Shown here piece after piece: positions 1-46,028 of a stretch of 54,215 bases of DNA (its first letter is position 1; each line of letters starts with the position of its first letter). Position numbers and translations under genes: made by a program. The stretch covers positions 1 to 54,215 of the forward strand of contig WQZZ01000002.1 in NCBI GenBank assembly GCA_009780485.1, in the 5' to 3' direction. The notes beneath the pieces were generated by a model. The model worked only from the letters and a program-made list of their open reading frames with translations, was not told the origin of the DNA and did not search any database. This DNA is from Defluviitaleaceae bacterium. GTDB lineage: Bacteria; Bacillota; Clostridia; Lachnospirales; WRAX01.

Positions 1-129
1 AACCCACTAACAGGTGATGATGGACCAAACACAAATGCAGGTGTCCTAGCAGTTCCGTTCTTTGCAAGCTTCGCAGCTCTGTTTGGAGCTTTGATGAGAA
101 GGCGTAAGGATGGTAAGGGTGTTAGGTAG
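1..129 (+). CDS. 3' end of a surface protein gene carrying a sortase-type C-terminal sorting signal (partial, start outside window)
   Basis: Frame 1 reads NPLTGDDGPNTNAGVLAVPFFASFAALFGALMRRRKDGKGVR-stop (TAG 127-129): xPxTG-like motif, hydrophobic segment, R/K-rich tail. Confidence 0.55.
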   Translation, partial: NPLTGDDGPNTNAGVLAVPFFASFAALFGALMRRRKDGKGVR

Positions 130-16207: not shown

Positions 16208-16230
16208 ACATTATGAGGGGAGGAAATACA

Positions 16231-16560
16231 TTGAATATCATAAATTACGAAACATCGGGCGGTAAAGATTTAATACGTGAATATATTAATGACCTGCCCA
16301 AAAATGAGAAACTAGAATTTTTTGACATCATAATAACCATAGAAGAAGATGGATACCCAGCCCTTAAAAACATCAACACCAGACATCTAATGGGCAAAAT
16401 GTGGGAAATAAAATTCTCACAAAACCGCATAATGTATATAGTGGCTGATGCTGATAACATTTATTTCCTCCACGCTTGCAAGAAACAAAAAGGCAAGGCT
16501 GAAAAATTTGAGCTTGAAACAGCCGTAAAGCGAGCTAAAGAGTTTGGATTAAAAGTTTAA
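16231..16560 (+). CDS. type II toxin, RelE/ParE superfamily (phage Gp49-like / HigB-like)
   Basis: ETSGGKDLIREYINDLPKNEK ... MWEIKFSQNRIMYIV ... FLHACKKQKGKAEKFELETA matches the Gp49/DUF891 pattern. TTG start at 16231 follows GGAGGAAA; the track start is 16213. Confidence 0.65.
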   Translation: MNIINYETSGGKDLIREYINDLPKNEKLEFFDIIITIEEDGYPALKNINTRHLMGKMWEIKFSQNRIMYIVADADNIYFLHACKKQKGKAEKFELETAVKRAKEFGLKV

Positions 16561-16613
16561 TAAGGGTTAATCATTTATTTAACTTGTTATATTATAGTGA
16601 AGGAGGGCTTTTG

Positions 16614-16922
16614 ATGCCTGGAAGAAAAGTTGACATTGACGAAATCAAAAGGGAAAGGCAAGAGTTAATTAATTCTGACCCCGAATTGGCAAAAGCTTCG
16701 GAGGAATGGAACAAAGAATATGTATTCCGCAAAAAACTGACGCAAGCCCGCAAAGAAGCAGGACTTACCCAAAAAGAGCTTGAAAATCTTTCTGGGTTAG
16801 ACCAACGCACCATCAGTCGCATGGAGATTGACGAAAAAATCAGCCCTAGCATTAGGACGCTGATTAAGTATCTAGGTGCTTTGGGGTATCAATTGGATAT
16901 TACCAAAGCTACAGCAGAATAA
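16614..16922 (+). CDS. XRE-family HTH antitoxin (HigA-like)
   Basis: GAAGGAGGG RBS before ATG 16614. LTQARKEAGLTQKELENLSGLDQRTISRMEID is an HTH. Lies immediately downstream of the Gp49-like toxin. Confidence 0.65.
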   Translation: MPGRKVDIDEIKRERQELINSDPELAKASEEWNKEYVFRKKLTQARKEAGLTQKELENLSGLDQRTISRMEIDEKISPSIRTLIKYLGALGYQLDITKATAE

Positions 16923-23469: not shown

Positions 23470-23853
23470 TTATTGTGCTGATGTAACAATCCCTAAAAGC
23501 TTACTGACTTCTTTGGATAGTGCAACATAATCACCCCGCAAAGTATCCACATCCTTCAAAAGCATGGGCTGTTGACTGTTTACTGCCCTTGCAATCTGAT
23601 TAAGGTTGTTAGTGGCGTTTGACAGCAGAAATGTTAGTTGATTTATGCTGGATAAATCAATATCCAAGATAAAGCCTTGGTTTATTATCTCTCTGATAAA
23701 GTGGGAGCGATTTTTAGCCCCCACCTGTGCCATTCTCTCTAACAAAGCGGTTTTTTCTTCATCAGACATATATACCTTGATGCAATGTTGCTTGGTTTCG
23801 GGTTTTGTATCTGGCTTGGTTTCATGCTTTTCGCTTGACTTAGTTTCCATCAT
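23470..23853 (-). CDS. mobC: MobC-family relaxosome accessory protein
   Basis: IKVYMSDEEKTALLERMAQVGAKNRSHFIREIINQ (RHH-like) and NNLNQIARAVN are MobC hallmarks. Start at ATGATG 23853/23850 overlaps the upstream stop. The track N-terminal extension to 24153 is a shadow frame. Confidence 0.7.
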   Translation of the reverse strand: MMETKSSEKHETKPDTKPETKQHCIKVYMSDEEKTALLERMAQVGAKNRSHFIREIINQGFILDIDLSSINQLTFLLSNATNNLNQIARAVNSQQPMLLKDVDTLRGDYVALSKEVSKLLGIVTSAQ

Positions 23854-25282
23854 CAGCATCCATATCAACATCGGCATCTTCTGAATGGTAATCATGCTCG
23901 TTTTCGTTGTCATCGTCATGGCTACCGTGTTCATCATCGAATAAATCGTCTGCACTTTCTGGGTCGTTGCGGTCTGAATGGGTGTGGTCTTCTTGGTTGT
24001 TGGTTTCTTGGTTGGAGTTGTAATGACCGTCAGCATCACCATCGCCCTCATAATGACCACCTTCACCATCGCTTTCAAACTCATCCCCAAAATCACCGTC
24101 AAACTCATCACCGAAACCATCTTCACCATCGACAAAGCCACCAACTCCAGCATTACGCTTTTTCTGGCGGGATTTAATCATAAAGAAAAATCCAATGCTC
24201 ATAGCACCCAGCATAACTAGCAAAGATACAGCACTCATGCCGACCCTGCCACTGCCTGTATCGTGATATATGACTTCTTGACCAGTAACAACTTGAATCT
24301 GTTGACTATTGGCAATACCCGCCCCATGTCCAGCTTGTATGCCACCAAATCCTAACATTCCGCCTTGCTGTATGCTGGCTTCGTCACCAGCTTCCCAAGC
24401 TAAAGACATTAAATAAAATTCTGTAACAGGGGCTAAGAAATATACATTGTCTGCATCTCTTGCCCTGTCTATGATTAGAAAGAATGTATTACCTGCTTGG
24501 CTGTTAATTGTAATGAACTCCATATCTCCTACCATGATAGTGTCCACTAGCTCACCGCCACCGTCTGGGGTTAGTGGGCTTGGGGTTTGCTCTGTTCTTG
24601 GTAGAATTACTTGACCGTTTGTTGTGGGTAGGTCTGGTAGGTGTCGGGGTTCTGACTGAGTTACGTTCGGCTGTATATTATTGTTATCAGTGTCATTATT
24701 ATTGTTGTAGTCATCATAAGCACCGTTGTTTTCCCATTCGGATGAGGTAATGCCAAGGGCATCAAAAAACCACTCTGGAGGCAATTCGTCTGGCAGGGCT
24801 GATGTTTCTGCTTGGTATGTTACTCCAGTGGATGCTTGGGGGATGGAATTATCTGTGGTTGCTGTGCTTGTAGTGCCTGCACCGTTACTGAGTTGTCCAT
24901 TTGACACAGATGCTTGACTATTGTTTTCAAGACTTGATACAGGGGTAATGGACAAGATGTTTAATGGGGTGTGGTTTATGGCATTGCGTCCATCACTTGT
25001 GCTGTTGACGTTATTGCTGTCATTGTAGGTGTTTTGTTGGGAAGTATTAGCCTCCAAACTTTCGCCAAAAACTACCAACGAAAACGAAAGCGATAACCGT
25101 ACGATAAGCCAACATACCAAAAACATAATTGACAGAGCCGTTATAACCCCAAAAACGCATACTTTGGTTTCCTCTGATGTTGTTGCACGTTTTAATGTTG
25201 CACGTTTTGATGACGGCATTGCAGATACCATCGGAAATCTCGATATGTAAGTGTTAGTTGAATATTTGTCATTTTTAACCAT
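23840..25282 (-). CDS. DUF4366-like (CD1107-family) membrane-anchored mobile-element protein with acidic/His-rich tail
   Basis: AGGAGGAAG RBS and N-terminal TM. Core EFITINSQAGNTFFLIIDRARDADNVYFLAPVTEFYLMSLA is the DUF4366 signature. Second TM, then a D/E/G/H-rich tail. Confidence 0.65.
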   Translation of the reverse strand: MVKNDKYSTNTYISRFPMVSAMPSSKRATLKRATTSEETKVCVFGVITALSIMFLVCWLIVRLSLSFSLVVFGESLEANTSQQNTYNDSNNVNSTSDGRNAINHTPLNILSITPVSSLENNSQASVSNGQLSNGAGTTSTATTDNSIPQASTGVTYQAETSALPDELPPEWFFDALGITSSEWENNGAYDDYNNNNDTDNNNIQPNVTQSEPRHLPDLPTTNGQVILPRTEQTPSPLTPDGGGELVDTIMVGDMEFITINSQAGNTFFLIIDRARDADNVYFLAPVTEFYLMSLAWEAGDEASIQQGGMLGFGGIQAGHGAGIANSQQIQVVTGQEVIYHDTGSGRVGMSAVSLLVMLGAMSIGFFFMIKSRQKKRNAGVGGFVDGEDGFGDEFDGDFGDEFESDGEGGHYEGDGDADGHYNSNQETNNQEDHTHSDRNDPESADDLFDDEHGSHDDDNENEHDYHSEDADVDMDADDGN

Positions 25283-25596: not shown

Positions 25597-28500
25597 TTAC
25601 TTGGTTGCGACAGCACTTTTGCGACGTTTGACTAAGATTAAGGTTGATAAACTTGCCATAGCGACAAACCCTATAGCTGTAAAGATTGTTGTAAAAGTGT
25701 TGAAAGTGTCGTCTGTTTGAGGGTTGGTAGTTGCTGTGTCGTTTGGCGTTATTACTAATTCGTCTGCTGTTTCGTCATCATCTTCATAATCGTCATATGG
25801 TGCAGGTGCTGATTGCTGTAGACCTACTGGCTCGTCAGCCGTTGGTGCAGGTGCTGATTGCTGTGGTTCTGCTGGTTCGTTTACTACTGGAGTTGGAGCA
25901 TAAACGGCTTGTTGAGGTGCGTTTGGCTCGTATACCGTTGACTGCTCTGGTTGTGGGGTCTGGTTGTTAGTTTCTGTGTCGGGTGCGGTGTCAGGTTGCT
26001 GTGGAGCTTCGGGAGTTGTTTGCGGTGGAGTTTGGTTGTTGTCGTAGTCGTTATCGTCAGTGTCATCATCACCATTATCATCATAATCTCCACCGCCTGC
26101 ACCATTATCATCACCAATATCTGGCTCATCTACTGGCGGTTGTGGTGTAGGACGCTCTATTGGTGGGGTGGTAACGGGTAGCTCTGGTACATACCAAACA
26201 GCTTTCAGAATAGTATGACCATTAGCGAAAACGCCACCACCCATAGCAATGACTTCCACGTCCTCATTAGACATCGGTGTGTAGGTTGTACCCACTACCC
26301 TCCAGCCAAGGAAAATACGGTTAGCTTCGATGCTTTCCATGAAGTTGGCTTTAATGTCAGATTTGGTAACGTCTTTACCGTAATTGCTGATGCCCATGCT
26401 ACCTACAATTCCATTGTAAGAGCCGTAACCATCATTACCATTGTCGGGGTTAGTGTTATTATCGCCACTATCGCCACTATCTGGGTCTGCATCATAATCA
26501 CTCCCCAAATCAGGAACAACAAACCCACCCAACTCATAAAGTGAGCGTCCCTGCCTTAGAGTCGCACTTGCTACATCATCACCATCAACAACAAAGGTAA
26601 CATCCGCTTGCCAGACAGCATAAAGGCTAGTGGCTGAATTGATGTTTGTTGTAGGTGACAATGGCGTGTCGCCGTTAGGCTCATTGCTCCAGTGTACAAA
26701 CTCCCAATTGTTGTTATGGACTGTCGGTATACTCGGAAATCTCTCATTAAGAGGATTACCAAGACGAATACCACGGCTTAGTGGTTCTCCACTGGGTAGA
26801 CTAGCTAGACCACCTAAACCAGCATCGAAGTTGATAACGGCATACCATTGTGCAAATAACACAGTAGCATGAGGGAACATATAACTGGAGTTAGGGTCTA
26901 TAGTGATACCACTACCATCCATGCGGGTATTCCATCCAAGGAAAGACACACCTGCTGGAGCAGTAATTAATGGGTCGCCACCTGTGTTTGCAATACTGTT
27001 AGGGAATTGGACATAACGGGTGTAGCTATCCTGTCCATTAATAACACCTTGCACTTGAACCATGCCATAATCATCAATGACGATTGCTGGTCCGAAACCA
27101 CGGTGGAACATGATGCCTGTGTTTGCTACCCATTGAGCAAAGACTGTGGTGTTTTGTGTCATTACAGTAGTAGCATCAAACCAATGTCCTAGGGTGTCAT
27201 CTCCTGTTATGTGAGTATGCCAGCCAATAAAGGTGTGACCAAACAGCACTGGGGCTGGTAGTGACAAAGGTGTGTTTGGTGTACCAACGGCTTGATGGTT
27301 ATTAGCAATGGTTCTGCCAAGCATCACTTCTTGGGTGGTGATAAGATTACTTTGGTTAGGGTCTTGGGAATTGCGGTTATCGTTGAATGTAAGTGTACCA
27401 CCCCAAGTAGCATAGATAGTCGGTCCACCTATAATCCCCGCTTGTGCATAAGTGCCAGGGAAACTAGCACGCCCTAAAGTCCCTGTAAAAAACGAACCAG
27501 AACCATCAGGAGCTAAGTTCCAACCCATGAAGCGATAACCTACTCTTGATGTAATACCAGCTTGTCCTGTAGATACTGGGAAGTGGAAGAAACCACCACC
27601 TACATTTGGACCTACCCAGTTCATTATATTGTTGTGGGTGTTGTGGGTGTAGTTACCATCTGCAAGGTGAGGTTGTATAGCCCATGGAATAACATTAGGA
27701 TTATAAGCAACAGGGTTTGTCGGGTCTCCAGCGAACACATTTCGCACAAAGGTGTTACCCCTGTTAATATCAGTCCCACCATTAGGGTCAAACTGGATAT
27801 ACATTGCAGGTCTAAAACGTGCTGCTAGATGAACACCACCAATAGGCATTTGCCCATGTACGTTGTTATTACTTGTTCCTCTAAATCCTAACCACGCTGG
27901 TAAAGACCAGTTAGGATTTAGTTCTGGTTGGATTGGTCCTAGTTGTACTCTTATACGCTCGCCAGCTTCATCTAGCACATATTCACCCATGGCATCCAGC
28001 AAATAGGGTAGGTTTAGAGTGCCAGGAATGTCATCCACATACCAACCCATAAAGATATAACCTAGTTTAACTGGATGGGCTGGCATCTCGCCTACATTCA
28101 ACATACCTGTGCCATTACAATTGATTGTAAGTGGGTTATTTGTACCTCTATAAGATACAGGTACATTGGCAGTGTTGTTGGTATTCATATAACCATGACG
28201 GAAATCCTCTGCACCCCTTCTCCAAATCGCCCCCTCTGGGAGGTGGAAGGTAACAGATGAAGATGTTTCTACTTCTGCCCATTGTGCGTAAAGGTGTAGA
28301 CTTTGAGTAATAAGAAGAACATCATTACCACTTATGGATGTATTCCAATCAGCAGATGTGAATGTACCATCCGAAGCTACGTTTATTACATGGTCTGGAT
28401 GATAAATACGTTCAACGCTTGGGTGACTTAGGTTTGCTTGGACTGTCCAGCCTAAGAACTCTCTGCCTTGCGGACTTTCCAAAGCAGGAAGCCCATAACG

Positions 28501-30390
28501 TCTTGTAGGGTTATCTGCGGGTGTCCAAAGACCAGATGTAAAGCCTTGAGAATCGCCACCTCTTAGAGTGTCGATTAGCAGGGCTTGCCCTGCTGGTATG
28601 CCAGAACCACCCATTGCTTGGTTTTTCTGGACTAGGTATCTTGGTATCATCCGTAGTACCTCGGTACTGCGGTTTAATTCCTGCCCGCCATTAGCCACAA
28701 ACTCTATGCGGGCAACCCAGTTAGCATGAACTTCCATGGATTGGGTAATCTCTACATTGGAACGACCGTTTAAGCTCGGCAATAACCTTGTACTCAAGAA
28801 GTAAGCTATGGGGGCATCCCCAGGGGGAGCTATACGTTGGACAGGACTTGCACCACCTGCGAAATTACCTTCTGTCCACCATCTGGCTACTTGGTCTGGT
28901 GTACCTGTCCACCAGCCCTCTAAGTGAAACCCAGCAGGGGCAATCGCAACAGGAGCGCCGAACCTATAAGATGTTAGATGTTGGTTTAATGGCACAACAC
29001 CTTCACCAGTACGGCTAGAACGATGAATAGACATACCATGATGGGCTAGCCTTGTTGCCATTCCAGAACCATCATTCAACAAACCACCGTCAGATGGTGA
29101 TATTGTGCCATCGCCAGCATTAAAGGTAATGGTGTGTACAGCACCTTCTGCCCAAACGGCTTGAATTTCTAGGTTGCTATTGATGACCGTATCAACAGTG
29201 AACACATCGCCGATGACACCGCCTGTCACTACGTGCCAACCCAAAAAGGTATTAGTGGCACTGGTTGGGTTCACAGGAAACACAATGCCTGTAATGTCAG
29301 CCATATGTGAAATGGTTTCGCCACGCAGTACAACCCTTGTAGCTAGATGAGTTACATTTGTTGGGTCAGTGCCAGCAACATCCATGTTGTTTGGGATAAT
29401 ACCGCCCAGATGGAATGATACTGATAGACCCCAGACTGCATAGGCGGCTAGGTTGCCGTATTCGTCTAGGTCGTCTACGGTAATTACTGTGGATGGGGTT
29501 AAAATTCTACCATTCAAACCATTGACAGAACCATTACCAACACCATTACCATAACTGTCAGAACCATTACCGATACCACCACCATAGCCATCAGAACTAC
29601 TAATCACCCAATGAATAAAGGCATACCCATCAAGTGTAGGGTCTTGCGGGAAAACGGCAACCCTTCCGTCAGCAGTTAAGAAACTAGTTTCATCTCCAGT
29701 CAATAGCTGTCCACCCATTGGATTAAAGTGGATAGTGCCGATAGAAAAGGGCATCGCTACACGATTGCCAGCAACTGCACCGTTTACCCCGCCAGTAACT
29801 GTGCCTGTACCAGCACCCGCACCAATGCCAACACCATCACCAGAACCTGCACCAGCATTGACACCATCACCAGAACCCATGTCTGTATTTGGTGTATTTG
29901 GGTCAGATGGTGATGCTGGTGTATCTGCATTGGGTAAATCTGATGTTGGTTTGTCGCCATCATCATTGTACTTGTCGGAGTATTCATCATCGGCATCTTC
30001 GCAAGAACACTCGTCATCGGCGTACTGGTCGCAATAGTCGTAATCAGGATAATCTGCTTCTGGTTTGTTGTGTTCTGGTGAATATTCATGTTCTCCAGAA
30101 TAATCATAATCGAAATAGCGATAATCCGAATACACATCATCAGAATGGTTTTCATCGTCACCATAATAGTGACCGTTATCATAAACATAACTACCATGTC
30201 TACCATGACTATCATATCCAGCGTTTTCCGTTACACCAGCGAAAACTAGCTGGGTTGAGAAGCTGGATAGAACCATAGCAAACACCAATGTCCATGCAAT
30301 CAATCTTGATGGTATGGACTTTCTTGACTTTACTTGATTTGTTTGTGTTGACTGTATTGCTTGTATTTCCTGTAATACCTTTACTTCCAT
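25597..30390 (-). CDS. 1597-aa cell-surface protein with ~10 Listeria-Bacteroides (InlB B-repeat/Flg_new-type) repeats and a C-terminal sorting signal
   Basis: Signal peptide LIAWTLVFAMVLSSFSTQLVFA. Repeats are marked by FIHW, FLGWHV, LEGWW, FLGWTV, FMGWYV, FMGWNL, FIGWHT, FLGWNT, FVHWSN and FLGWRV. C-terminus is NPQTDDTFNTFTTIFTAIGFVAMASLSTLILVKRRKSAVATK. Confidence 0.85.
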   Translation of the reverse strand: MEVKVLQEIQAIQSTQTNQVKSRKSIPSRLIAWTLVFAMVLSSFSTQLVFAGVTENAGYDSHGRHGSYVYDNGHYYGDDENHSDDVYSDYRYFDYDYSGEHEYSPEHNKPEADYPDYDYCDQYADDECSCEDADDEYSDKYNDDGDKPTSDLPNADTPASPSDPNTPNTDMGSGDGVNAGAGSGDGVGIGAGAGTGTVTGGVNGAVAGNRVAMPFSIGTIHFNPMGGQLLTGDETSFLTADGRVAVFPQDPTLDGYAFIHWVISSSDGYGGGIGNGSDSYGNGVGNGSVNGLNGRILTPSTVITVDDLDEYGNLAAYAVWGLSVSFHLGGIIPNNMDVAGTDPTNVTHLATRVVLRGETISHMADITGIVFPVNPTSATNTFLGWHVVTGGVIGDVFTVDTVINSNLEIQAVWAEGAVHTITFNAGDGTISPSDGGLLNDGSGMATRLAHHGMSIHRSSRTGEGVVPLNQHLTSYRFGAPVAIAPAGFHLEGWWTGTPDQVARWWTEGNFAGGASPVQRIAPPGDAPIAYFLSTRLLPSLNGRSNVEITQSMEVHANWVARIEFVANGGQELNRSTEVLRMIPRYLVQKNQAMGGSGIPAGQALLIDTLRGGDSQGFTSGLWTPADNPTRRYGLPALESPQGREFLGWTVQANLSHPSVERIYHPDHVINVASDGTFTSADWNTSISGNDVLLITQSLHLYAQWAEVETSSSVTFHLPEGAIWRRGAEDFRHGYMNTNNTANVPVSYRGTNNPLTINCNGTGMLNVGEMPAHPVKLGYIFMGWYVDDIPGTLNLPYLLDAMGEYVLDEAGERIRVQLGPIQPELNPNWSLPAWLGFRGTSNNNVHGQMPIGGVHLAARFRPAMYIQFDPNGGTDINRGNTFVRNVFAGDPTNPVAYNPNVIPWAIQPHLADGNYTHNTHNNIMNWVGPNVGGGFFHFPVSTGQAGITSRVGYRFMGWNLAPDGSGSFFTGTLGRASFPGTYAQAGIIGGPTIYATWGGTLTFNDNRNSQDPNQSNLITTQEVMLGRTIANNHQAVGTPNTPLSLPAPVLFGHTFIGWHTHITGDDTLGHWFDATTVMTQNTTVFAQWVANTGIMFHRGFGPAIVIDDYGMVQVQGVINGQDSYTRYVQFPNSIANTGGDPLITAPAGVSFLGWNTRMDGSGITIDPNSSYMFPHATVLFAQWYAVINFDAGLGGLASLPSGEPLSRGIRLGNPLNERFPSIPTVHNNNWEFVHWSNEPNGDTPLSPTTNINSATSLYAVWQADVTFVVDGDDVASATLRQGRSLYELGGFVVPDLGSDYDADPDSGDSGDNNTNPDNGNDGYGSYNGIVGSMGISNYGKDVTKSDIKANFMESIEANRIFLGWRVVGTTYTPMSNEDVEVIAMGGGVFANGHTILKAVWYVPELPVTTPPIERPTPQPPVDEPDIGDDNGAGGGDYDDNGDDDTDDNDYDNNQTPPQTTPEAPQQPDTAPDTETNNQTPQPEQSTVYEPNAPQQAVYAPTPVVNEPAEPQQSAPAPTADEPVGLQQSAPAPYDDYEDDDETADELVITPNDTATTNPQTDDTFNTFTTIFTAIGFVAMASLSTLILVKRRKSAVATK

Positions 30391-30469
30391 AGTATTCCTC
30401 CTCTTTGTGAGATATAGGGCGGGAGGGACTTACGCCCTTGGGTGTGAACACTTCACCTTTGCCCCTCGC

Positions 30470-30502
30470 TCTCATCAGATGGATGGTGGTCCTCTGATGA
30501 GA
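30470..30502 (-). promoter_or_regulatory. perfect 10-bp-stem hairpin in the adhesin leader, overlapping the uORF 3' end
   Basis: TCTCATCAGA (30470-30479) and TCTGATGAGA (30493-30502), 13-nt loop. Confidence 0.6.
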
Positions 30503-30549
30503 AATGTTACTGTATTTACAGCAACTTTTTTGATGGTTTTTTGCATCAT
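30475..30549 (-). CDS. 24-aa upstream ORF in the adhesin leader
   Basis: AAAGGAG RBS, ATGATG at 30549, MMQKTIKKVAVNTVTFLIRGPPSI-stop. The stop codon lies inside the 3' arm of the hairpin. Confidence 0.35.
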   Translation of the reverse strand: MMQKTIKKVAVNTVTFLIRGPPSI

Positions 30550-30606
30550 CAAAACTCCTTTCAAGTATTAAAATTTGATTATTGAATTTGATAGTTTTTA
30601 AGATAA

Positions 30607-31170
30607 TCAAAATCCTTTTGCAAGAACAAACCGATTAAATTCTGGACACAATCCAAGACTTGCCATTAAAGCCCTATTAAATTTGTTACCAGCTTTATTT
30701 AGGCTACGTATATACCCAACTTTGTGTCTAAAGACAGATTTGTCCAATGTATGAACCTGCTCGAACTGGACAACGCTGGTTTCAAAGCGGTCAAAAGACC
30801 TCATATTCTCGAACTTTATGTCACGTTGATTTATGTAAGCGTGGGTTGGCATATGGGGCTTTTTGTCTGTTGATGTGATGATTGCCACAATCACAGTGGG
30901 AGCGTAGTGGTTGCCTATGTTGTTTTGTAGGACTAGCACAGGGCGTACACCGCATTGACTACTTCCTATGGTTTTGGGGATGTCGGCGAAGTATATGTCA
31001 CCTCGTTTGTAGATTGCGGTTATGGGGTCGAGAATTGTGTATTCTGGTATTACGTAGTTAGGTTTTTTATGGGTAGACTTTGAAACGTCATATCTTCTTT
31101 GGTATTTTCTCATGGGGTCATTTCGCCCCCTCCTTGTCTTTGTTTGGTGCATTGTTTTCAGGTTTGTCAT
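30607..31170 (-). CDS. MazF/PemK-family endoribonuclease toxin with a basic N-terminal extension
   Basis: KRGDIYFADIPKTIGSSQCGVRPVLVLQNNIGNHYAPTVIVAIITS ... SVVQFEQVHTLDKS aligns by eye with B. subtilis EndoA/MazF. Start is 31170 or ATG 31113; either leaves at least 35 extra N-terminal residues. Confidence 0.8.
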   Translation of the reverse strand: MTNLKTMHQTKTRRGRNDPMRKYQRRYDVSKSTHKKPNYVIPEYTILDPITAIYKRGDIYFADIPKTIGSSQCGVRPVLVLQNNIGNHYAPTVIVAIITSTDKKPHMPTHAYINQRDIKFENMRSFDRFETSVVQFEQVHTLDKSVFRHKVGYIRSLNKAGNKFNRALMASLGLCPEFNRFVLAKGF

Positions 31171-31435
31171 CAGATTGATTTTTGGGTTCTTTTGTTGATA
31201 CAGGCTCTTTAGGTTTTGGAGAGGTGTTTCGTAAAAGTTTTTCTACATCTTCCAAAGACACGCTATGCTTTTTCATCAGCCCTTGGATGATGCCACCCTC
31301 AATATCTTTGCCCTTGGCTTCGAGGATTGATATTTCCTGTTGGGCAATATCCAGTTGTTGGCGTAACTTGTCCGCCTTGGCATGGGCAACTAATAATTGT
31401 TTGTTGTTACTTTCAAGGCGTTGGTGTGAACTCAT
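31118..31435 (-). CDS. DUF4315-like coiled-coil conjugation protein
   Basis: ADKLRQQLDIAQQEISILEAKGKDIEGGIIQGLMKKHSVSLEDVEKLL, with size and position after VirB4 typical of DUF4315. K/P/E-rich tail. Confidence 0.6.
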   Translation of the reverse strand: MSSHQRLESNNKQLLVAHAKADKLRQQLDIAQQEISILEAKGKDIEGGIIQGLMKKHSVSLEDVEKLLRNTSPKPKEPVSTKEPKNQSDDKPENNAPNKDKEGAK

Positions 31436-34224
31436 TGGGATGCTACCTCCTTGGCTTCTTTGGTTTCATTGACTTTATTGGTTTTACTGACTTGGCTGGT
31501 CTTAATGGCTTCTTTGTTTTTGGCGAGCTTGATTGAGTTAATCGAACCAATCGGATTAGTAAAGTTGGTCGAGTGGGTCGAACCATGCAAGTCACTGGGC
31601 TTGGTAGTCATAACCTTGTAAAGCTCGGTATCTTCGGGGAATTTATCTTTAGCAGCGATTATGTTGTTGCCATACTTTATCAAGACATCGCCCTGCTCTG
31701 CGTTAGTTACATGAGCTAGATGCCCTGGCGAAATATTAAATCTTTCTGCCAATATCTTACCATCATCAGGTGCTTGGTCTAGGAGTGCTACAAACTCGCA
31801 GTTTTCAAGGATGTTTGCGACTTCTGCGGATAACAGAAACTCCTTTACATTCTGTGTAATAACAGTGGGTATTGCACCCCACTTTCTAAAACGCTTGTAC
31901 ATCTCGGCTGAGTATGACGCTGTTTGCTTATGGCGTATGAGGAGATGGAACTCGTCAGAATATGTCCATGTACCTATGCCTAAGTTTCTGTTGCGGGACA
32001 CTCTTGACCATATTTGGTCTTGAATAATGAGCATAGCTAAGGGTCGCATACTCTCCCCAAGGGATTTAGTATCAAAGCAGATAAGGCGATTATCGGCATC
32101 TATGTTGGTTTGGTGGTTAAACATTGTGTATGAACCCTTAACAAAGCGATATAGGGCGTGGGCAAGGTTTTGTGACTTTTCCTTCCAGTTACTATTTTCT
32201 GGATTTTCTGGGTCAGTTTCATTTATTAAAGCATTGTACAAATCTTCTAATATTGGCATATTTTCTGGGATAGGATTTTTAAGGTACTCACGATAAACAA
32301 CCACCACACAATGGTCGATTATTGACTGCTCTACATCTTCAAGCCCATTTGGGCGGGTAGTGATGGTTTCCATCATTGAGGCGATAAACTCGCTTTTTAA
32401 CCCGATGGGGTCGTTGGGTTCTTCTTTTGTGCCGTAATCCAACACAATGTCCATTGGGTTTATATGGGTTTTTGATGCGGTGGAGAGTTTTACTACTGTC
32501 CCACGAAGCTTTTTTACAAGGGCTGAATACTCTCCCTCTGGGTCAAGGATGAGTATGGTGTCACCAGTAGCTAGGAATACATGGACAAACTCTCTTTTTA
32601 CAAAGAAGGATTTACCAGAGCCTGGGATGCCCAGTACAACTCCGTTTGGGTTCTTTAACTTCTTACGATTGGCAAGTATAACCCTGCCCGATATAGCATT
32701 AGTGCCGTAATATATGGCTTCTGCATCCTCTTGGAATAGTTCTTGCGAGGAAAAAGGCATAAAGGCTGCAACGGCTGATGTTATTAGTTTTCTGGATAGT
32801 GGGCTTGGGATTTGGTTTACACCTAAAGCTAGGGATGATGCTAGACCCTGTTCTTGTAAGTATTCCAGTCCGTGTAATTTACAGCTATATTGTGAAGCAA
32901 TGCTTTTAGTGGATGCTATTCTTCCATCAAGGTCTGGCGGGTTGCTTGCAAGGTGCATTACTATAAAATGGGTGTCAAAAAGTTCTTCGTTTCCTTGTAA
33001 ATCCTTTATTAATCCAGTTGCAGCCTCAGAATACATCTTGATGTCTGGAGGTAGTATATCTGCGTCATAGTTTTCTCGAAAAGCTTTCTTTTGACCAGCG
33101 GACTTGGTTGCGTTTACCTCTGAAAGTTTTGCTTTGCCGTATTTTATGGCAGTGGATTTGTCCATGGGTTTTATGTGTTGTGTTATGATTATGGGGTAAT
33201 CTGTGTCTAAGAGTTTTGATAAAAACTTGTCGGGTAGTTCTTCTGCTGATATTTCTAGGTAGGACATTGCACATAGGGTTTTGTTTCCGATGGGTTGGGC
33301 AGGTTTATTGGAGTAGGACGACTTCGCTTCCAACACAAAGGTATCAGCTTGAAAACGGAAACTTTGTGGGCTTATGTAATCTTTGGTGGTGGCGTGGATG
33401 TTGTTATCTAAGGGAAACCCTGTAGCGTTTGTTTTGCGATTGCTAGGTAAAACAAATCTGTCCTTTGGGTGTGGGTTTAACTGCTTATGTAACAATTTTA
33501 ATCTCTCTTGTCCATCCAGTGGGTATGCCGTCACTCGTAAAGCCTTGAAAATCGAAAGCATTTCCCTTTCAATGCGGTTTAGTCTGTTTGAGGCATCTTT
33601 TATATTCTTGGCGTGTATGCCGAAAGTGGCGTATTTTCTTTTCACTAAGCCCTTGCCAGCGTCAGCAAGTTTTTGGCGTAGCATTGTGTAAAATTCTTTG
33701 CGTATGTTTTGGAAGCGGTCGTCTTTGCCTTGCAACTTGACAGCAGTTTCAATTTCTTGTAAATCTGGGTAGTAATTCATGTAAGTAAGTTGTAGTGAAA
33801 CATCTTCGCTGAATGAATTGAGTAATTGACACCATTGACCAAAGATGCGTCTTTTTTCGTGTTGACCAGCCATTTGGAAGTTGGTGTCCTCAAAAGCTAT
33901 GGTTTTAGTGTAGTAGTCACCTTCTACGTGACATAGACCGCTGGAGAGCATTGTTATGTATGGGATTGTGTCGTGTGGATTTGTTGGTGGTACGGCTTGT
34001 CCAAAGGCTTTTTTGTATAAGAATTGTTTGGACTGGGTGAAGAAAGAAATGGATGGTTTACGTTTAGTTGGCGGTTGGTTGGTTTGTGGTTGTTTTTGGT
34101 ACGGGGGTTGTTGGTTTTTGTTGTGTGGTTGCGGTTTGTAGTTTTGTTGGTTTTTGTGGTTCTGACCCTTGTGGTTTGGATGGTTTCTTTGGGTTGGTTG
34201 TGTTGTTTTTGTGGCTTGGGGCAT
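31432..34224 (-). CDS. VirB4-like conjugative transfer ATPase (CD1110/TcpF-type)
   Basis: Walker A GIPGSGKSFFVKRE and N-terminal IPYITMLSSGLCHVEGDYYTKTIAFEDTNFQ are typical of Firmicutes VirB4. Q/P/N/K-rich N-terminal extension. Confidence 0.9.
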   Translation of the reverse strand: MPQATKTTQPTQRNHPNHKGQNHKNQQNYKPQPHNKNQQPPYQKQPQTNQPPTKRKPSISFFTQSKQFLYKKAFGQAVPPTNPHDTIPYITMLSSGLCHVEGDYYTKTIAFEDTNFQMAGQHEKRRIFGQWCQLLNSFSEDVSLQLTYMNYYPDLQEIETAVKLQGKDDRFQNIRKEFYTMLRQKLADAGKGLVKRKYATFGIHAKNIKDASNRLNRIEREMLSIFKALRVTAYPLDGQERLKLLHKQLNPHPKDRFVLPSNRKTNATGFPLDNNIHATTKDYISPQSFRFQADTFVLEAKSSYSNKPAQPIGNKTLCAMSYLEISAEELPDKFLSKLLDTDYPIIITQHIKPMDKSTAIKYGKAKLSEVNATKSAGQKKAFRENYDADILPPDIKMYSEAATGLIKDLQGNEELFDTHFIVMHLASNPPDLDGRIASTKSIASQYSCKLHGLEYLQEQGLASSLALGVNQIPSPLSRKLITSAVAAFMPFSSQELFQEDAEAIYYGTNAISGRVILANRKKLKNPNGVVLGIPGSGKSFFVKREFVHVFLATGDTILILDPEGEYSALVKKLRGTVVKLSTASKTHINPMDIVLDYGTKEEPNDPIGLKSEFIASMMETITTRPNGLEDVEQSIIDHCVVVVYREYLKNPIPENMPILEDLYNALINETDPENPENSNWKEKSQNLAHALYRFVKGSYTMFNHQTNIDADNRLICFDTKSLGESMRPLAMLIIQDQIWSRVSRNRNLGIGTWTYSDEFHLLIRHKQTASYSAEMYKRFRKWGAIPTVITQNVKEFLLSAEVANILENCEFVALLDQAPDDGKILAERFNISPGHLAHVTNAEQGDVLIKYGNNIIAAKDKFPEDTELYKVMTTKPSDLHGSTHSTNFTNPIGSINSIKLAKNKEAIKTSQVSKTNKVNETKEAKEVASQ

Positions 34225-37896: not shown

Positions 37897-38424
37897 TCAC
37901 GCATTTACCGTTGTTCCGTATGCAAGGAAAATGACAATCGTTAATACACTCAATATCAATATAAGTCTTATAATCGGCATGAAATATCTACCGTAAATTC
38001 CCCGAAACACCCACAAACCACCTTTCTTTCCTTTCTTGCCGTTACAACGAACACAACAGGCAACTAGATTTGAAATGTGGTTGACCCCATCGGGCAGGGT
38101 TTTGAAATGCTCCCTCAAATGCTTGGTATACTGCACCCTGCGGATGGAATGGATGTGGTCAACAACGATTTTAGGCTTGTCCCACATGACACGCCCGCAG
38201 TATGGACAAAAGTATAGACTTTCAAAGGCTTTGTTCGGGAATACTTTCAAAAGGAAGCCTTGTACGGAGGGTGGTATTTGCCAACCCTTATCATGCTCGA
38301 AGTATCGCCGTCTGTAGTCGTGACTACGTTTTAGGGTCTTTGTTCGTTCTATGTAAGGTTTTTTATTCACGATGTCCACCTTGCTCATGTGACCCAGCAG
38401 GTTTTGTATGAGTAAGTTGACCAT
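37897..38424 (-). CDS. HNH endonuclease with a C-terminal transmembrane anchor
   Basis: CPYCG ... VVDHIHSIRR ... NHISNLVACCVRCNGKKG gives the HNH/Zn-finger pattern. C-terminus FMPIIRLILILSVLTIVIFLAYG is hydrophobic. No clear RBS. Confidence 0.65.
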   Translation of the reverse strand: MVNLLIQNLLGHMSKVDIVNKKPYIERTKTLKRSHDYRRRYFEHDKGWQIPPSVQGFLLKVFPNKAFESLYFCPYCGRVMWDKPKIVVDHIHSIRRVQYTKHLREHFKTLPDGVNHISNLVACCVRCNGKKGKKGGLWVFRGIYGRYFMPIIRLILILSVLTIVIFLAYGTTVNA

Positions 38425-40929: not shown

Positions 40930-43452
40930 TTATCTCCCAGATAGTTCTGGTGGTGGCGGTGTGTTAGGTGTTGGGGCGGATAACCCCTTATCTTGTTGAT
41001 TTTGTTTGCCAAATCCCATTTGCTCCGCCTTATTGATTTGTTTATTAAATTCTTTATTGAATTTCTTGTAATCTCGTCCCATCTTAAAAGGGATACTATG
41101 GTCAACTGTATTGGTGGTGACATGATGCTTGTCACTCCATCCCTTTGCAAAGACCAGTTTTTCAGCTATATTTTCATGGTGGCGACGAAGGTTGTTTGGT
41201 TCACGTAGTTGGGCTTGTTTGGCTAGTGCATCGGGGTTTATTAATTCTTTGACCCTTGTTAGCTCTGCTGGGTCTTTTGGTTCAAATTTTTGTATGCTGT
41301 AATCAAGTAGCCCGTTGTTGTTTCTGCTACCTTCGTAGGTGACAGAATAGACATCGTTATTGATGTTGTAAAATGCCATGTTGTGGCTGACAAGGGCTGG
41401 TGGGTGGAAGCTTGTGTTGGTGGTTCTGTCGTTGCCTTTGTCGTTGTCCTTGTAATTATCGGTATATCTGCCCTCATCAGTACCGCTGGATATTCCAGCC
41501 CCTCCATAACGTGCAGTATTTCTCTTATCCACCAAAACATCATTAAAGTCTTTAATGGGTCTGGTATCTGGGTTTGAAATATCGTTCCAATCCCTAATTA
41601 CCCCTACCTGCGGTGGTTTATATTCCACCGTATATTTGTCTGGATATTTCTGGTTTAACTGGCTCATAATCCGATGTGCAGCGTCTTGTCCTGCTTTGTC
41701 GTTATCGAGGTTTAAGACAATTTTGTCAATGTTGGGATGTTGTTTTAGGTAGGTTTCAAGCCCTAATGAGGACGTACCCCCAAGGGATATTCTGTGTACA
41801 CAATTCCAGTGTTGTCCAATTTTTGGGTTTTGTTTGTCTAGTGTTGCTTTGGACATGGCATCAATAGGAGATTCTGTCACAAAGACTATCTTTGAGATGT
41901 CTTTGTGTTGCTCTTTGATTGGTATAACGAAAGGCACGGACTTAGTGCTATTGGTGGCTTCGCCTATAAATTTTTTGTCTGTATTATCCTTTGTTCCTCT
42001 CAGGGAGGCATATTTGGCAACACCATCTTGGTCAAAGCCAACAAAAACGGCGTTGTTGTGGGGTTTACTTTGATATAAAACCTTTTGCTCAAAGCAATAA
42101 TTTACAATATCCTCGTCTATGGCTCTATTTTCTGTGAGATAATCCGTCACGGCTGTGCGACCCCAACTGGCTTTGGGTAATTCAATCGGACCTTTTGGTT
42201 CGGGTGGTTCGGGTGGGTGTGGTTCTTGAGGTTTAGGGGCTTGGTTAAGGTTGCTATCCACATTGCTTTTAGGTGTATGTTGGGGCTGTCCAGAGTGTGT
42301 CGTTTGGGATTGGTTGGACTTGACTGTTTCCGCATAGTTAGGCGTTAGATACTTTACTGCATCTACGAAGTTGTACCCTCGCACCTTAGACATAAAATCT
42401 AGGGCAGTTTTTCCGCTTATGTCCCTAGAGTGCCATTTCCAAGCATAACCACCATCTTTTGAAGGGAAGATTTTCAGGCTGTCATGGTCTTTTAGTTTGT
42501 ATGTATCTGCACTATGACGGGTTATGTTGTCGGGTTCGTTGGTTTTTATGTAATCTAGTACACATACAGAACGAGCTTCGTCTCTACGTGCTTCACTAAC
42601 GAATTTGTCGTTGACTTTACTGTTGGTTTTACTGTTGGTCTTACTACTGACAGTGCCAGTGTTGTTGTGGCTTGATTTTTGCTCTTGCTTAGGTTGCTGG
42701 ATTTGTTCTTGGTTTGGTTCTTGTCGGGGTTGTGTGTCATTTTTTGGATTGGGTTGTGCGGGTTGTGGTTGAATTGATGAATGTGATGGATAGTCTGGAT
42801 AGTTTGAGTGGTCAGGGTAGTACGGGTATTCCTTGGATTGGGATTGCTTTGAGTATTGTGATATTTGTTGCTCATAAGACCATAGTGCGTCATCCCAAGG
42901 GTCTTGTGTGGAATGGTTATTTTGGTTGGGGTTGGGTTGGGGTGCTGTTTGCTCGTGTTGGTCGGAATTAGACAAAGGTGCTGTTTGCTCGTGTTGTAGG
43001 GGTGTAGAGGATGTAGAGGATTGCTCTGCTTGTGATTGTATTTGTGATTGGGTGTGGTGGATGTGTTCTGGATTGGTTTGTTGTGGAGTTTGGTGCAAAG
43101 ATGTATTTGCCAGTGTCTGCTGTTCTGCGGTTGATGAGGATTGATTTGTCTGCCCTAAGGTTTGATTTTGACCTTCCATGCCCTTTTGGGCGTTAAAACC
43201 CTCTAAAACTGCCCTGTCAATCGCTTTGCGAAGTTCTGCCGTGGCAGGGAAAGCAATGTCGTAATATTTACCGTCAGACCCCTTGCTTTGGGGCATGGCT
43301 ACAAAGTTGCCTTTTGCACCACTCATCACACGTACACCGTTTATGGCTATTAGATTGTTTATGGTGATGTTGGCAAAGGCTAGGGTGCTGTTTTTGGGGC
43401 TTAGAATTGGGTTGATTTTTACGTCTATTTGGAATTGTTGGGGTTGGGTCAT
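40930..43452 (-). CDS. fusion protein: N-terminal SpoVG-like domain, ~200-aa low-complexity linker, DUF3991/Toprim primase-like region, C-terminal domain
   Basis: Residues ~1-90 (LAFANITINNLIAINGVRVMSGAKGNFVAMPQSKGSDGKYYDIAFPATAELRKAI) match SpoVG. VTDYLTENRAIDEDIVNYCFEQKVLYQS ... AVFVGFD is DUF3991-like. VFVTESPIDAMS ... LNLDNDKAGQDAA is Toprim. Confidence 0.75.
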   Translation of the reverse strand: MTQPQQFQIDVKINPILSPKNSTLAFANITINNLIAINGVRVMSGAKGNFVAMPQSKGSDGKYYDIAFPATAELRKAIDRAVLEGFNAQKGMEGQNQTLGQTNQSSSTAEQQTLANTSLHQTPQQTNPEHIHHTQSQIQSQAEQSSTSSTPLQHEQTAPLSNSDQHEQTAPQPNPNQNNHSTQDPWDDALWSYEQQISQYSKQSQSKEYPYYPDHSNYPDYPSHSSIQPQPAQPNPKNDTQPRQEPNQEQIQQPKQEQKSSHNNTGTVSSKTNSKTNSKVNDKFVSEARRDEARSVCVLDYIKTNEPDNITRHSADTYKLKDHDSLKIFPSKDGGYAWKWHSRDISGKTALDFMSKVRGYNFVDAVKYLTPNYAETVKSNQSQTTHSGQPQHTPKSNVDSNLNQAPKPQEPHPPEPPEPKGPIELPKASWGRTAVTDYLTENRAIDEDIVNYCFEQKVLYQSKPHNNAVFVGFDQDGVAKYASLRGTKDNTDKKFIGEATNSTKSVPFVIPIKEQHKDISKIVFVTESPIDAMSKATLDKQNPKIGQHWNCVHRISLGGTSSLGLETYLKQHPNIDKIVLNLDNDKAGQDAAHRIMSQLNQKYPDKYTVEYKPPQVGVIRDWNDISNPDTRPIKDFNDVLVDKRNTARYGGAGISSGTDEGRYTDNYKDNDKGNDRTTNTSFHPPALVSHNMAFYNINNDVYSVTYEGSRNNNGLLDYSIQKFEPKDPAELTRVKELINPDALAKQAQLREPNNLRRHHENIAEKLVFAKGWSDKHHVTTNTVDHSIPFKMGRDYKKFNKEFNKQINKAEQMGFGKQNQQDKGLSAPTPNTPPPPELSGR

Positions 43453-45910: not shown

Positions 45911-45937
45911 ACCGCCCTTGCTACAACAAGAAGCGGT
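45911..45937 (-). terminator. minus-oriented hairpin plus T-run upstream of the recombinase gene
   Basis: Minus strand reads ACCGCTTCTTG ttgtag CAAGGGCGGT followed by TTTTTTG. No minus-strand gene lies upstream other than ssrA. Confidence 0.4.
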
Positions 45938-46028
45938 AAATAAATCACGAAATGCACCACATCAGAATAATACATTTCCACGCCCCTATTATACCACCCT
46001 TCGGGCTGGAATGGAAGGGGTAATTTTT

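Follow-up and report, generated by a model that had tools for sequence, protein, structure and literature searches.

Why should a giant surface-protein gene lie among the transfer genes of an ICE, and how would its product be held at the cell surface? These questions are raised by a locus in a 54,215-nucleotide stretch of contig WQZZ01000002.1 (here called the window), which comes from a termite-gut Clostridia bacterium of the family Defluviitaleaceae known from metagenomes only. An RND gene in the window is 84% identical to its counterpart in a Defluviitaleaceae MAG. The gene of interest sits in the T4SS operon of a ∼33-kb serine-recombinase ICE. We think it reasonably probable that its product is an acidic, fibrillar accessory adhesin of host-lineage origin that was inserted into the ICE and is likely anchored by a sortase of the host.

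The adhesin gene (25597..30390, including the stop codon) lies on the minus strand, as do all features given below unless stated otherwise. Its ATG start is preceded, at a distance of 6 nt, by a strong ribosome binding site (GAGGAGG, 30397..30403), and it encodes 1597 amino acids (171 kDa, pI 4.4). A putative N-terminal secretion signal (aa 1-52; 30235..30390) was recognized by inspection and by alignment with the N-terminus of P0188, a homolog described below. By inspection, this signal has a basic n-region (KSRKSIPSR) and a hydrophobic core (LIAWTLVFAMVLSSF), followed by VFA/G. The next segment (aa 53-160; 29911..30234) is, by composition, an acidic tip in which 22% of residues are Asp and 16% are Tyr, in keeping with the Tyr/Asp-rich N-terminal region that had been noted in the initial annotation. 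P0188 also has a region of similar composition. A Gly/Ala-rich linker (aa 161-218; 29737..29910), likewise defined by composition, leads to the repeats, and a stalk rich in Pro, Asp, Thr, and Gln (aa 1402-1555; 25726..26187) follows them. With 19% Pro and 9% Gln the stalk is P/Q-rich as originally described, but that description overlooked the 16% Asp (Thr contributes 12%), which makes the stalk as much acidic as P/Q-rich. Three imperfect 45-51-nt repeats are present within the stalk DNA at 25798-25931.

Ten diverged B-repeat units, which start with h-F-x-x-x-G-G and end with A-x-W, were delineated by using a self-trained HMM and inspection. This count agrees with the approximately 10 Listeria-Bacteroides-type repeats that had been proposed. 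Seven of the units have an exact F-x-G-W marker. The Pfam family Flg_new (PF09479) matches the adhesin over three stretches with an E value of 1.5e-16 and a score of 60.7 bits, above the gathering cutoff of 27 bits, which confirms the repeat family. At E ≤ 1, the Pfam scan of the adhesin gave nothing besides Flg_new except a weak match to an anchor model and a spurious match to Ycf2.

Unit 1 (aa 219-321; 29428..29736) carries a Gly-rich insert that is lacking in P0188 and is followed by unit 2 (aa 322-414; 29149..29427). Unit 3 (aa 417-560; 28711..29142) is an elaborated B-repeat into which a conserved GWW...RWW helix is inserted, a type seen again in other Defluviitaleaceae surface proteins. 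Next come units 4 (aa 561-706; 28273..28710), 5 (aa 710-861; 27808..28263), and 6 (aa 862-998; 27397..27807), and then unit 7 (aa 999-1090; 27121..27396), which holds the best Pfam Flg_new stretch. The series is completed by units 8 (aa 1091-1184; 26839..27120), 9 (aa 1185-1262; 26605..26838), and 10 (aa 1263-1401; 26188..26604), the last with an acidic Gly/Asp/Asn insert that P0188 lacks. Several units carry insertions of 40-80 aa. No nucleotide-level repeats exist among the units, which are old and strongly diverged.

An AF2 model of unit 2 (pLDDT 70, pTM 0.61) was compared with PDB structures by using Foldseek. The top six matches are all InlB B-repeat structures (2Y5P, 7PV9, and variants) with probabilities of 0.89-0.96, although the E value is only 0.12. 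Among PDB matches, the predicted fold of this unit tentatively fits the InlB B-repeat best. A fold search of the PDB with unit 3 gave no significant match, and a sequence search of the PDB with the adhesin found nothing. The Pfam match and the tandem F-x-G-W ... A-x-W units are shared with Flg_new/List_Bact_rpt (PF09479) surface proteins of Firmicutes and Bacteroidota. Compared with other Flg_new proteins, the adhesin is distinguished by being ICE-borne, by its diverged units, some with insertions, and by unit 3, which represents a distinct elaborated subtype.

Word-index searches with the full adhesin and with its nonrepetitive core returned essentially the query alone. An exhaustive HMMER search found P0038, and its cluster member P0188 provided a full C-terminus and a genomic context. 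P0188 (1962 aa), which comes from another termite-gut Defluviitaleaceae bacterium, is the only collinear relative of the adhesin. The alignment extends over aa 25-1399 (E 8e-116) with 28% identity overall and 24-42% identity when units are compared one by one with their counterparts. There is no nucleotide similarity between the adhesin gene and the P0188 gene and leader. The NCBI name for the P0188 cluster is Defluviitaleaceae, and the homolog is called 'InlB B-repeat-containing protein'. Its locus is chromosomal and outside any ICE, in the company of MgtE, LytR, flagellar rod genes, RecD2, and an ECF sigma factor, and the P0188 gene is preceded by its own ECF sigma/anti-sigma gene. Giant B-repeat proteins form an expanded paralogous family in termite-gut Defluviitaleaceae, and the adhesin is a member of it. 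GC content was considered as a sign of foreign origin and discarded. The adhesin gene has 45.7% GC versus 40.9% for the rest of the ICE, but the P0188 gene is also GC-richer than its neighbors, and so the value for the adhesin probably reflects amino-acid composition.

The initial annotation placed the adhesin gene between the VirB4 module and DUF4366. This is the correct operon stretch, but virB4 is not adjacent. Two genes intervene between the adhesin gene and the VirB4-like ATPase gene (31432..34224): a DUF4315-like small coiled-coil backbone gene (31118..31435) and a MazF/PemK-like toxin gene (30607..31113). On the other side is the CD1107-like (formerly DUF4366) backbone gene (23840..25282). 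Other ICE neighbors, all on the minus strand, encode T4CP, Maff2, TrbL_2, PrgI, an M23 peptidase, MobC, and a relaxase. Taken together with the putative signal peptide and the Flg_new match, these neighbors bear out the earlier view of a secreted multi-B-repeat surface protein inside an ICE T4SS operon.

Six related ICEs, whose VirB4 proteins are 74-44% identical, were examined for the same genes. In each, the DUF4315-like gene is followed directly by the CD1107-like gene, and neither the adhesin gene nor the MazF-like gene is present in any of the six. The DUF4315-like gene of the window is 44-46% identical to the small ORFs of two of these loci (L004 and L005) and 41% identical to that of L007. 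Since the small coiled-coil gene abuts the CD1107-like gene in all six ICEs, the adhesin and MazF-like genes form a 5.8-kb accessory insertion, edged by these two backbone genes, that is not part of the core T4SS. No flanking direct or inverted repeats were found around the insertion. In two termite-gut metagenomes, read depth is even over the adhesin gene and its ICE flanks, and no contig joins across the insertion. A search of GTDB genomes revealed no close relatives of VirB4 or the adhesin.

The C-terminus of the adhesin reads NPQTDDTFNTFTT-IFTAIGFVAMASLSTLILV-KRRKSAVATK. It has a tripartite layout in which NPQTD is followed, after 2-8 aa, by a hydrophobic stretch of ∼19-25 aa and KRRK. The candidate sortase motif NPQTD occupies aa 1556-1560 (25711..25725), the hydrophobic segment spans aa 1563-1587 (25630..25704), and the basic tail KRRKSAVATK comprises aa 1588-1597 (25600..25629). 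TIGR01167 matches at model positions 10-33, covering only the hydrophobic segment and tail, with 15.9 bits, which is exactly its cutoff. Pfam Gram_pos_anchor scores 13.3 bits, below its cutoff of 20. The C-terminus is not LPXTG, as had been pointed out earlier.

The sorting signal had also been likened to that of a chromosomal surface protein whose gene ends near the start of the window. Positions 1..129 on the plus strand hold the 3' end of this gene and encode NPLTGDDGPNTNAGVLAVPFFASFAALFGALMRRRKDGKGVR and a stop codon, with an NPLTGDD motif, a hydrophobic segment, and RRRK. This resemblance appears to be real. P0188 ends with NPQTSDD, a hydrophobic segment, and KRR, and its NPQTSDDF is spaced from the hydrophobic segment as NPQTDDTF is in the adhesin. 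Because NPQTSDD and NPQTD are in the same position in these two proteins, NPQT-x-D is conserved, in agreement with NPLTGDD in the chromosomal tail. When 36 relatives whose C-termini carry a hydrophobic segment and a basic tail were compared, xxxTG (LPxTG, MPQTG, NPKTGD, NARTGD) was the usual motif in this position. Judged from their sequences, the adhesin, P0188, and the chromosomal tail fit a lineage-specific NPxT-x-D signal of the class-B-sortase type.

The class B consensus NP(Q/K)(T/S)(N/G/S)(D/A), as used here for P1', combines the published class B substrates NPQTN, DNPKTGDE, NPKSSDS, NAKTNDS, and PPKTGDS (PMC11987632) with the Comfort and Clubb classification. The N-P-x-T/S core is present as NPQT in the adhesin and P0188 and as NPLT in the chromosomal tail. 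An acidic P2' residue, which is Asp1561 in the adhesin, is likewise found in all three, and P2' Asp is needed in the substrate of B. anthracis SrtB (PMC11987632). The adhesin shares the core and the acidic P2' with class B substrates such as S. aureus IsdC (NPQTN), B. anthracis IsdC (NPKTGDE), and Listeria Lmo2186 (NPKSSDS), and its NPQT is identical to that of S. aureus IsdC (PMC11987632). In contrast, the P1' residue is Asp in the adhesin, outside the Asn/Gly/Ser consensus, whereas it is Ser in P0188 and Gly in the chromosomal tail. Our literature search found neither an Asp at P1' in any verified sortase substrate nor 'NPQTD' as a sorting motif. The adhesin also differs from class B substrates in that it lacks a NEAT or heme-uptake context and has no srtB next to it. 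The scanned ORFs of the window gave no Pfam match to a sortase and no real ORF with a TLxTC motif. A search of 259 kb of related DNA was likewise negative for sortases, as were the surroundings of the adhesin gene, of P0188 (locus L008), and of P0116 (locus L016). The literature search found nothing connecting Defluviitaleaceae with sortases.

These observations bear on whether the C-terminus acts as a membrane anchor alone, with NPQTD left uncleaved and the stalk carrying the tethered protein through the wall. We consider this unlikely. It would accommodate the Asp at P1', for which we found no precedent, anchor HMM matches that do not exceed their cutoffs and take in no more than the hydrophobic segment and tail, and the failure to find a sortase in the window or in 259 kb of DNA from related loci. 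Some C. difficile proteins with complete sorting signals, such as CD0183 and CD2768, do stay uncleaved in vivo (PMC5569036), and the pLS20 adhesin functions without a sortase (PMC8092201). However, a plain membrane anchor sits poorly with the NPQT spacing, which is kept in the 28%-identical P0188 though the surrounding stalk is unalignable, with the canonical xxxTG of relatives in the same position, and with an acidic P2' that agrees with class B substrates. The comparative data favor an adhesin that is accessory to the ICE and relies on a sortase of its host. This arrangement has a parallel in C. difficile, where CD0386 (CTn1) and CD3392 (CTn7) are anchored by the chromosomal SrtB (PMC5569036). 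Like the adhesin, they are surface proteins of Clostridia conjugative elements that have a non-LPXTG signal and no sortase of their own (PMC5569036), but they are collagen-binding-type proteins with SPKTG/PPKTG signals of proven cleavage, whereas the adhesin is a B-repeat protein with NPQTD as its putative signal.

The adhesin gene is separated from the MazF-like gene by a 216-nt structured leader (30391..30606; fold z = -3.76). This leader holds a hairpin (CUCAUCAGA...UCUGAUGAG) and a CCUCCC tract 5' of the SD, and an Rfam search of it gave no match to a riboswitch or other RNA element. On the downstream side, a 314-nt AT-rich intergenic region precedes the next T4SS gene. Neither flank of the adhesin gene yielded a strong terminator, and none of the RNA runs searched contain the adhesin sequence. 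Co-expression with the T4SS is plausible.

This arrangement could suit a dedicated mating-pair-formation adhesin that is made only on T4SS induction and binds a recipient wall polymer like PrgB or p34, an analogy with PrgB that had been drawn before. The gene lies within the operon, in the stretch from virB4 to the CD1107-like gene, with the same orientation as the T4SS genes and with neither flank showing a strong terminator. Gram-positive T4SSs commonly use wall-anchored adhesins rather than pili (PMC12857230), and gene 34 of pLS20, which lies in the conjugation operon, is required for efficient liquid mating (PMC8092201). Yet the Pfam scan revealed no polymer adhesin or thioester domain, and the 314-nt gap and separate leader set the gene apart from the next T4SS gene. 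Moreover, all six related ICEs lack the adhesin and presumably transfer without it, and the closest homolog is chromosomal, behind its own ECF sigma/anti-sigma gene. Its absence from these ICEs and the non-mobile nature of its closest relative make the adhesin resemble cargo that was acquired more than a conserved part of the conjugation apparatus. The analogy with PrgB is therefore weakened, and a dedicated mating role is doubtful. We give slightly more credence, though still tentatively, to the possibility that the adhesin is purely host cargo, serving colonization or substrate binding on gut particles, the gut wall, or partner microbes, and that its operon position is an accident of a permissive site. 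At L007, unrelated cargo (SSB and small ORFs) lies between virB4 and the CD1107-like gene, there preceding the DUF4315-like gene, and both the chromosomal location of P0188 and the expanded paralogous family in termite-gut Defluviitaleaceae are in line with such an origin. As a rule, however, ICE cargo is located outside the transfer operon. Placement within the operon ties expression to transfer, which makes a benefit to the ICE hard to dismiss.

The reading that we prefer, an accessory adhesin anchored by its host, would operate as follows. The gene was probably recruited from among the chromosomal surface-protein genes of termite-gut Defluviitaleaceae and entered the ICE with the MazF-like gene, between the DUF4315-like and CD1107-like genes. 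There it is probably transcribed along with the transfer genes. Its product would be a fibrillar, acidic protein of about 160 kDa at the cell surface. Once exported by the Sec pathway through the signal peptide (aa 1-52), the protein would be retained in the membrane by its hydrophobic C-terminal segment and KRRK, and a host-encoded class-B-like sortase would most likely cut after Thr1559 (NPQT/D) and join the adhesin to peptidoglycan. The stalk of ∼150 aa rich in Pro, Asp, Thr, and Gln is predicted to cross the wall, and the ten B-repeat units would push the best-conserved, elaborated units 2-5 and the Asp/Tyr tip outward as the binding end. The protein is expected to attach to other cells or to particles and surfaces in the gut, and this could serve host and ICE transfer alike.

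Large secreted adhesins within Gram-positive conjugation clusters are represented by PrgB, the aggregation substance of pCF10, and by p34, the TED adhesin of pLS20. In contrast to these proteins, the adhesin showed neither a polymer adhesin nor a thioester domain nor a Cna-B stalk in the Pfam scan, and it is not conserved in the related ICEs examined. That ICEs or plasmids can carry sortase substrates is already known in general. What the locus would add is the capture by an ICE of a host-lineage surface adhesin, placed between two T4SS genes that normally abut and bearing a sorting signal that fits the lineage and departs from the textbook LPXTG. If the adhesin proves to help mating, the contact factors of Gram-positive conjugation, which include PAD, Cna-B, and TED adhesins, would be extended to B-repeat proteins. 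If NPQT-x-D is truly processed, the P1' tolerance known for class-B-type sortases would be widened, and the motif would offer a means to predict the surface proteome of an uncultured gut clade. The most far-reaching version combines these ideas: A class-B-like housekeeping sortase of termite-gut Defluviitaleaceae that requires N-P-x-T with an acidic P2' and tolerates Gly, Ser, or even Asp at P1' would be exploited by the ICE. The element would thereby show on the cell surface a B-repeat (Flg_new) conjugation adhesin, the first of its kind to be known, which it took from the surface-protein family of the host and wired into the T4SS operon. We regard this combination as improbable.

Exact and degenerate DNA scans of metagenome contigs yielded nothing that extends the chromosomal NPLTGDD gene. 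Other assemblies also break at this gene, and a JGI contig, which is longer by 115 nt, has an in-frame stop.

The adhesin gene occupies positions 25597–30390 (−) and encodes 1597 amino acids, in exact agreement with the initial annotation, with a GAGGAGG ribosome binding site 6 nt 5′ of the ATG. The protein has a mass of 171 kDa and a pI of 4.4. Its Tyr/Asp-rich N-terminal region, also recognized earlier, covers residues 53–160 (22% Asp, 16% Tyr) and precedes a region rich in Gly and Ala (residues 161–218). The stalk at residues 1402–1555 had been described as P/Q-rich; Pro is indeed abundant (19%), but Asp (16%) and Thr (12%) both exceed Gln (9%).

As the initial annotation expected, a Pfam scan places the repeats in PF09479 (Flg_new, the Listeria-Bacteroides or InlB B-repeat; E = 1.5e-16, 60.7 bits, cutoff 27), with only three stretches of the protein passing Pfam's own threshold. 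By self-trained HMM and inspection, the approximately 10 repeats first noticed resolve into ten units, each starting with h-F-x-x-x-G-G and ending with A-x-W: residues 219–321, 322–414, 417–560, 561–706, 710–861, 862–998, 999–1090, 1091–1184, 1185–1262, and 1263–1401. The F-x-G-W marker is exact in seven of them. E-values from an HMM trained on the adhesin's own repeats are circular and were not relied on. The count is independently supported because each unit pairs with a counterpart in P0188, a collinear homologue. Repeats at the DNA level are confined to low-complexity parts of the gene, and therefore the B-repeat array is old, without recent amplification. In one termite-gut run, minor contigs at 26551–26935 (units 8–9; depth ∼6–8 versus ∼20) carry many differences, mostly transitions, which suggests a second allele.

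Unit 2 was modeled with AF2 from an alignment that combined the adhesin's repeats with the P0188 units (pLDDT 70, pTM 0.61). The InlB B-repeat (2Y5P, 7PV9, and variants) accounts for all six top PDB hits of the model, with probabilities of 0.89–0.96, though E-values of only ∼0.1–0.2; ubiquitin-like β-grasp folds come next. This predicted fold supports the family assignment without being decisive alone. Unit 3 (28711–29142, −) is a distinct, elaborated subtype with the signature GH-x-ATRQAR-x-G-x-SI...P-x-NLN...WP-x-SAP...GWWT-x-P, which is present in at least nine proteins (P0188, P0104, P0116, P0071, P0075, P0050, P0065, P0110, and P0140). These are giant surface proteins, and three carry the Defluviitaleaceae name. 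In the unit 3 model (pLDDT 76, pTM 0.73), a Trp-rich helix supplements the β core, and no PDB entry matches the model significantly.

An HMMER search with the adhesin gave 1644 matches at E ≤ 1e-3, nearly all of them repeat-level matches to other Flg_new proteins. The standout was P0038 (E = 3e-89), named by NCBI [quoted passage not shown] whose 90% cluster contains the complete 1962-aa P0188. P0188 is collinear with the adhesin over residues 25–1399, signal peptide through unit 10 (28% identity, E = 8e-116), with individual units 24–42% identical; beyond this region it has additional, divergent B-repeats (Flg_new_2) and one more domain. Units 2–5 are the part best conserved between the two proteins, and on this ground are taken as the likely binding region. 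The P0188 gene lies among genes for MgtE, LytR_cpsA_psr, MgtC, flagellar rod proteins, RecD2, and an ECF sigma factor that carries a fused membrane segment; no conjugation genes surround it, and the setting is chromosomal. Preceding the gene (L008 7949–9563) are a 105-aa sigma-region-4-like ORF and the 431-aa ECF sigma factor, whose fusion includes an acidic extracellular tail besides the membrane segment. This arrangement suggests dedicated regulation of P0188.

From ∼17.4 to 43.5 kb, the window carries a Firmicutes-type conjugation module with every gene on the − strand. A SpoVG-DUF3991-Toprim primase, SSB, and HNH are followed by T4CP, Maff2, TrbL_2, PrgI, and a VirB4-like protein (31432–34224, −), then by a 105-aa coiled-coil ORF, a PemK/MazF-like ORF, and the adhesin, and finally by a CD1107-like protein (former DUF4366), MobC, an M23 peptidase, and a relaxase. 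Thus the adhesin does lie between the VirB4 module and DUF4366 as first reported, but two ORFs separate it from virB4. The 3′ end of a serine recombinase ORF (45918–47675, +) overlaps the 3′ part of the tmRNA gene (47546–47891, −; tag DNNDYAFAA), which locates the element at ssrA. Wall-polysaccharide and teichoic-acid-type enzyme genes form the left flank, and BlaI/BlaR1 and an RND pump the right. Together, the module, the recombinase at the tmRNA gene, and these flanks indicate an integrated ICE of ∼33 kb. No long direct repeat of the ssrA-side end was found near the other ICE end.

To place the adhesin gene within this element, the neighborhoods of six VirB4 homologues (74, 59, 51, 50, 45, and 44% identity) were compared. 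In all six, a small coiled-coil gene (labeled DUF4315 by Pfam in three) lies directly 5′ of the CD1107-like gene, usually overlapping it, and the stretches compared contain neither a large surface protein nor a MazF gene. The 105-aa ORF is 44–46% identical to the small ORFs of two related ICEs (L004 and L005) and 41% identical to that of a third (L007), and therefore corresponds to the backbone coiled-coil gene. Since the backbone pair abuts in all six relatives, the MazF-like gene and the adhesin together constitute 5.8 kb of inserted DNA that separates two genes conserved as a pair. By this comparison, the adhesin gene has clearly been inserted, and recently, between T4SS genes that are normally adjacent, and the MazF-like gene appears to have been co-inserted. 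The latter (30607 to 31113 or 31170, −; 168–187 aa; Pfam E = 3e-21) encodes a toxin-like protein extended at both termini, and its neighbors include no obvious antitoxin gene. In L007, other cargo (SSB and small ORFs) lies just 5′ of the conserved pair, which shows that insertions are tolerated in the region after virB4. In two metagenomes, the adhesin and flanking ICE genes are covered at an even read depth and no contig joins across the insertion, indicating that the adhesin gene is fixed in the element within the sampled population.

The C-terminus reads NPQTD-DTFNTFTT-IFTAIGFVAMASLSTLILV-KRRKSAVATK, which bears out the non-LPXTG ending (NPQTD, hydrophobic segment, KRRK) of the initial annotation. 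P0188 ends in ...SDGNPQTSDDFSNTAFIVFGSATILSLGALTAFLIVKRRAIR, and the tails align without gaps (N-P-Q-T-D-D-T-F versus N-P-Q-T-S-D-D-F) with equal distances from motif to hydrophobic segment; the stalks 5′ of the motif cannot be aligned. A position fixed in proteins only 28% identical argues that NPQT-x-D is functional. The likeness first drawn to a chromosomal NPLTGDD tail (1–129, +, encoding NPLTGDD...RRRKDGKGVR*) gains from this conservation in P0188, and we infer from the sequences that both are the same kind of signal. No assembly has more than the tail of the NPLTGDD gene. A JGI contig (L010 1–250) adds 115 nt, has an in-frame stop 25 codons 5′ of NPLTG, and, just upstream, departs from the ENA contig. 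The tail could be what is left of a gene, or the assemblies could have become chimeric at a repeat.

Among the best 150 of the 1644 HMMER matches, together with P0188 and the adhesin, 36 proteins end in a hydrophobic segment and basic tail. Most of these have xxxTG just upstream of the segment (LPxTG, LAxTG, MPQTG, NPKTGD, NARTGD), and NPQTD therefore occupies the position of recognized sortase motifs in these relatives. Two giant relatives, P0116 (L016 10001–21481), whose cluster carries the NCBI Defluviitaleaceae name, and P0041, have LPLMGG or LPLLGG before a hydrophobic segment and basic tail, a putative second, Thr-less, sorting-signal-like class within the same B-repeat family.

Class B sortase substrates include NPQTN (S. 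aureus IsdC), DNPKTGDE (B. anthracis IsdC), NPKSSDS and NAKTNDS (Listeria), and PPKTGDS (C. difficile CD0386), and B. anthracis SrtB requires Asp at P2′ (PMC11987632). NPLTGDD and NPQTSDD fit this pattern, as does NPQTDD except for Asp at P1′. We found no precedent for Asp at P1′ in sortase substrates and no paper describing NPQTD as a sorting motif. No sortase was detected in the window (Pfam scans of tested ORFs; TLxTC motif scan) or in 259 kb of related loci, among them the P0188 and P0116 neighborhoods. A direct precedent comes from C. difficile, whose chromosomal class B sortase has substrates encoded on ICEs, CD0386 (CTn1) and CD3392 (CTn7); in vivo, some complete sorting signals stay uncleaved (PMC5569036). 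We infer sortase processing of the adhesin. Most likely, the protein would be exported by Sec and retained in the membrane by its hydrophobic segment and KRRK tail; a host class-B-like sortase would then cut after Thr1559 and link it to peptidoglycan. The stalk would cross the wall, and the B-repeat rod would push the N-terminal part outward.

The predicted function is adhesion. In Gram-positive systems, wall-anchored adhesins often serve mating-pair formation (PMC12857230; PMC8092201), and a mating-pair role had been proposed by analogy with PrgB. The gene is co-oriented with the operon and inside it, and no convincing terminator was found on either side, so a helper role in mating would be compatible with the comparative data. 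Three observations make a core T4SS role unlikely: none of the six related ICEs has the adhesin, the homologue is encoded chromosomally with a sigma factor of its own, and the adhesin lacks a PrgB-type domain. The 216-nt leader (30391–30606, −) is predicted to fold far more stably than shuffled sequences (z = −3.76) and contains a hairpin with a 9-bp stem, CUCAUCAGA...UCUGAUGAG (30487–30519), and a CCUCCC tract ∼20 nt 5′ of the SD, which the tract could mask. Rfam has no match to this leader, and the P0188 leader is not similar to it. With this structured leader and a 314-nt AT-rich spacer 3′ of the gene, the adhesin may be regulated partly on its own.

The protein adds a new, rare representative to the multi-B-repeat wall proteins, a known class, and falls outside the families of PrgB, TED, and Cna-B adhesins. 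The system is a further example of an ICE-borne sortase-type surface protein, a class already known through CD0386 and CD3392, from which it differs in domain type, motif, and the clear recent insertion between normally abutting T4SS genes. The main interest lies in the lineage-wide NPxT-x-D signal and in whether Asp at P1′ is processed.

Adhesin DNA was present only in termite-gut metagenome runs, and the window's RND protein is 84% identical to its counterpart in a termite-gut Defluviitaleaceae MAG. Only two contigs carry the exact adhesin protein: the ENA contig of the window and a JGI contig, with 100% identity between them across 16.3 kb. Several other features of these elements were observed. 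L007 is integrated within spoVAD instead of ssrA. In the window, Gp49 (HigB-like) and HTH_3 genes (16213–16922, +) form a toxin-antitoxin-like pair close to the ICE left end, and the HNH endonuclease gene (37897–38424) lies between those for SSB and T4CP. The 840-aa protein at 40930–43452 (−) fuses an N-terminal SpoVG domain with a DUF3991-Toprim primase-like region, a fusion also present in L005 (638 aa).
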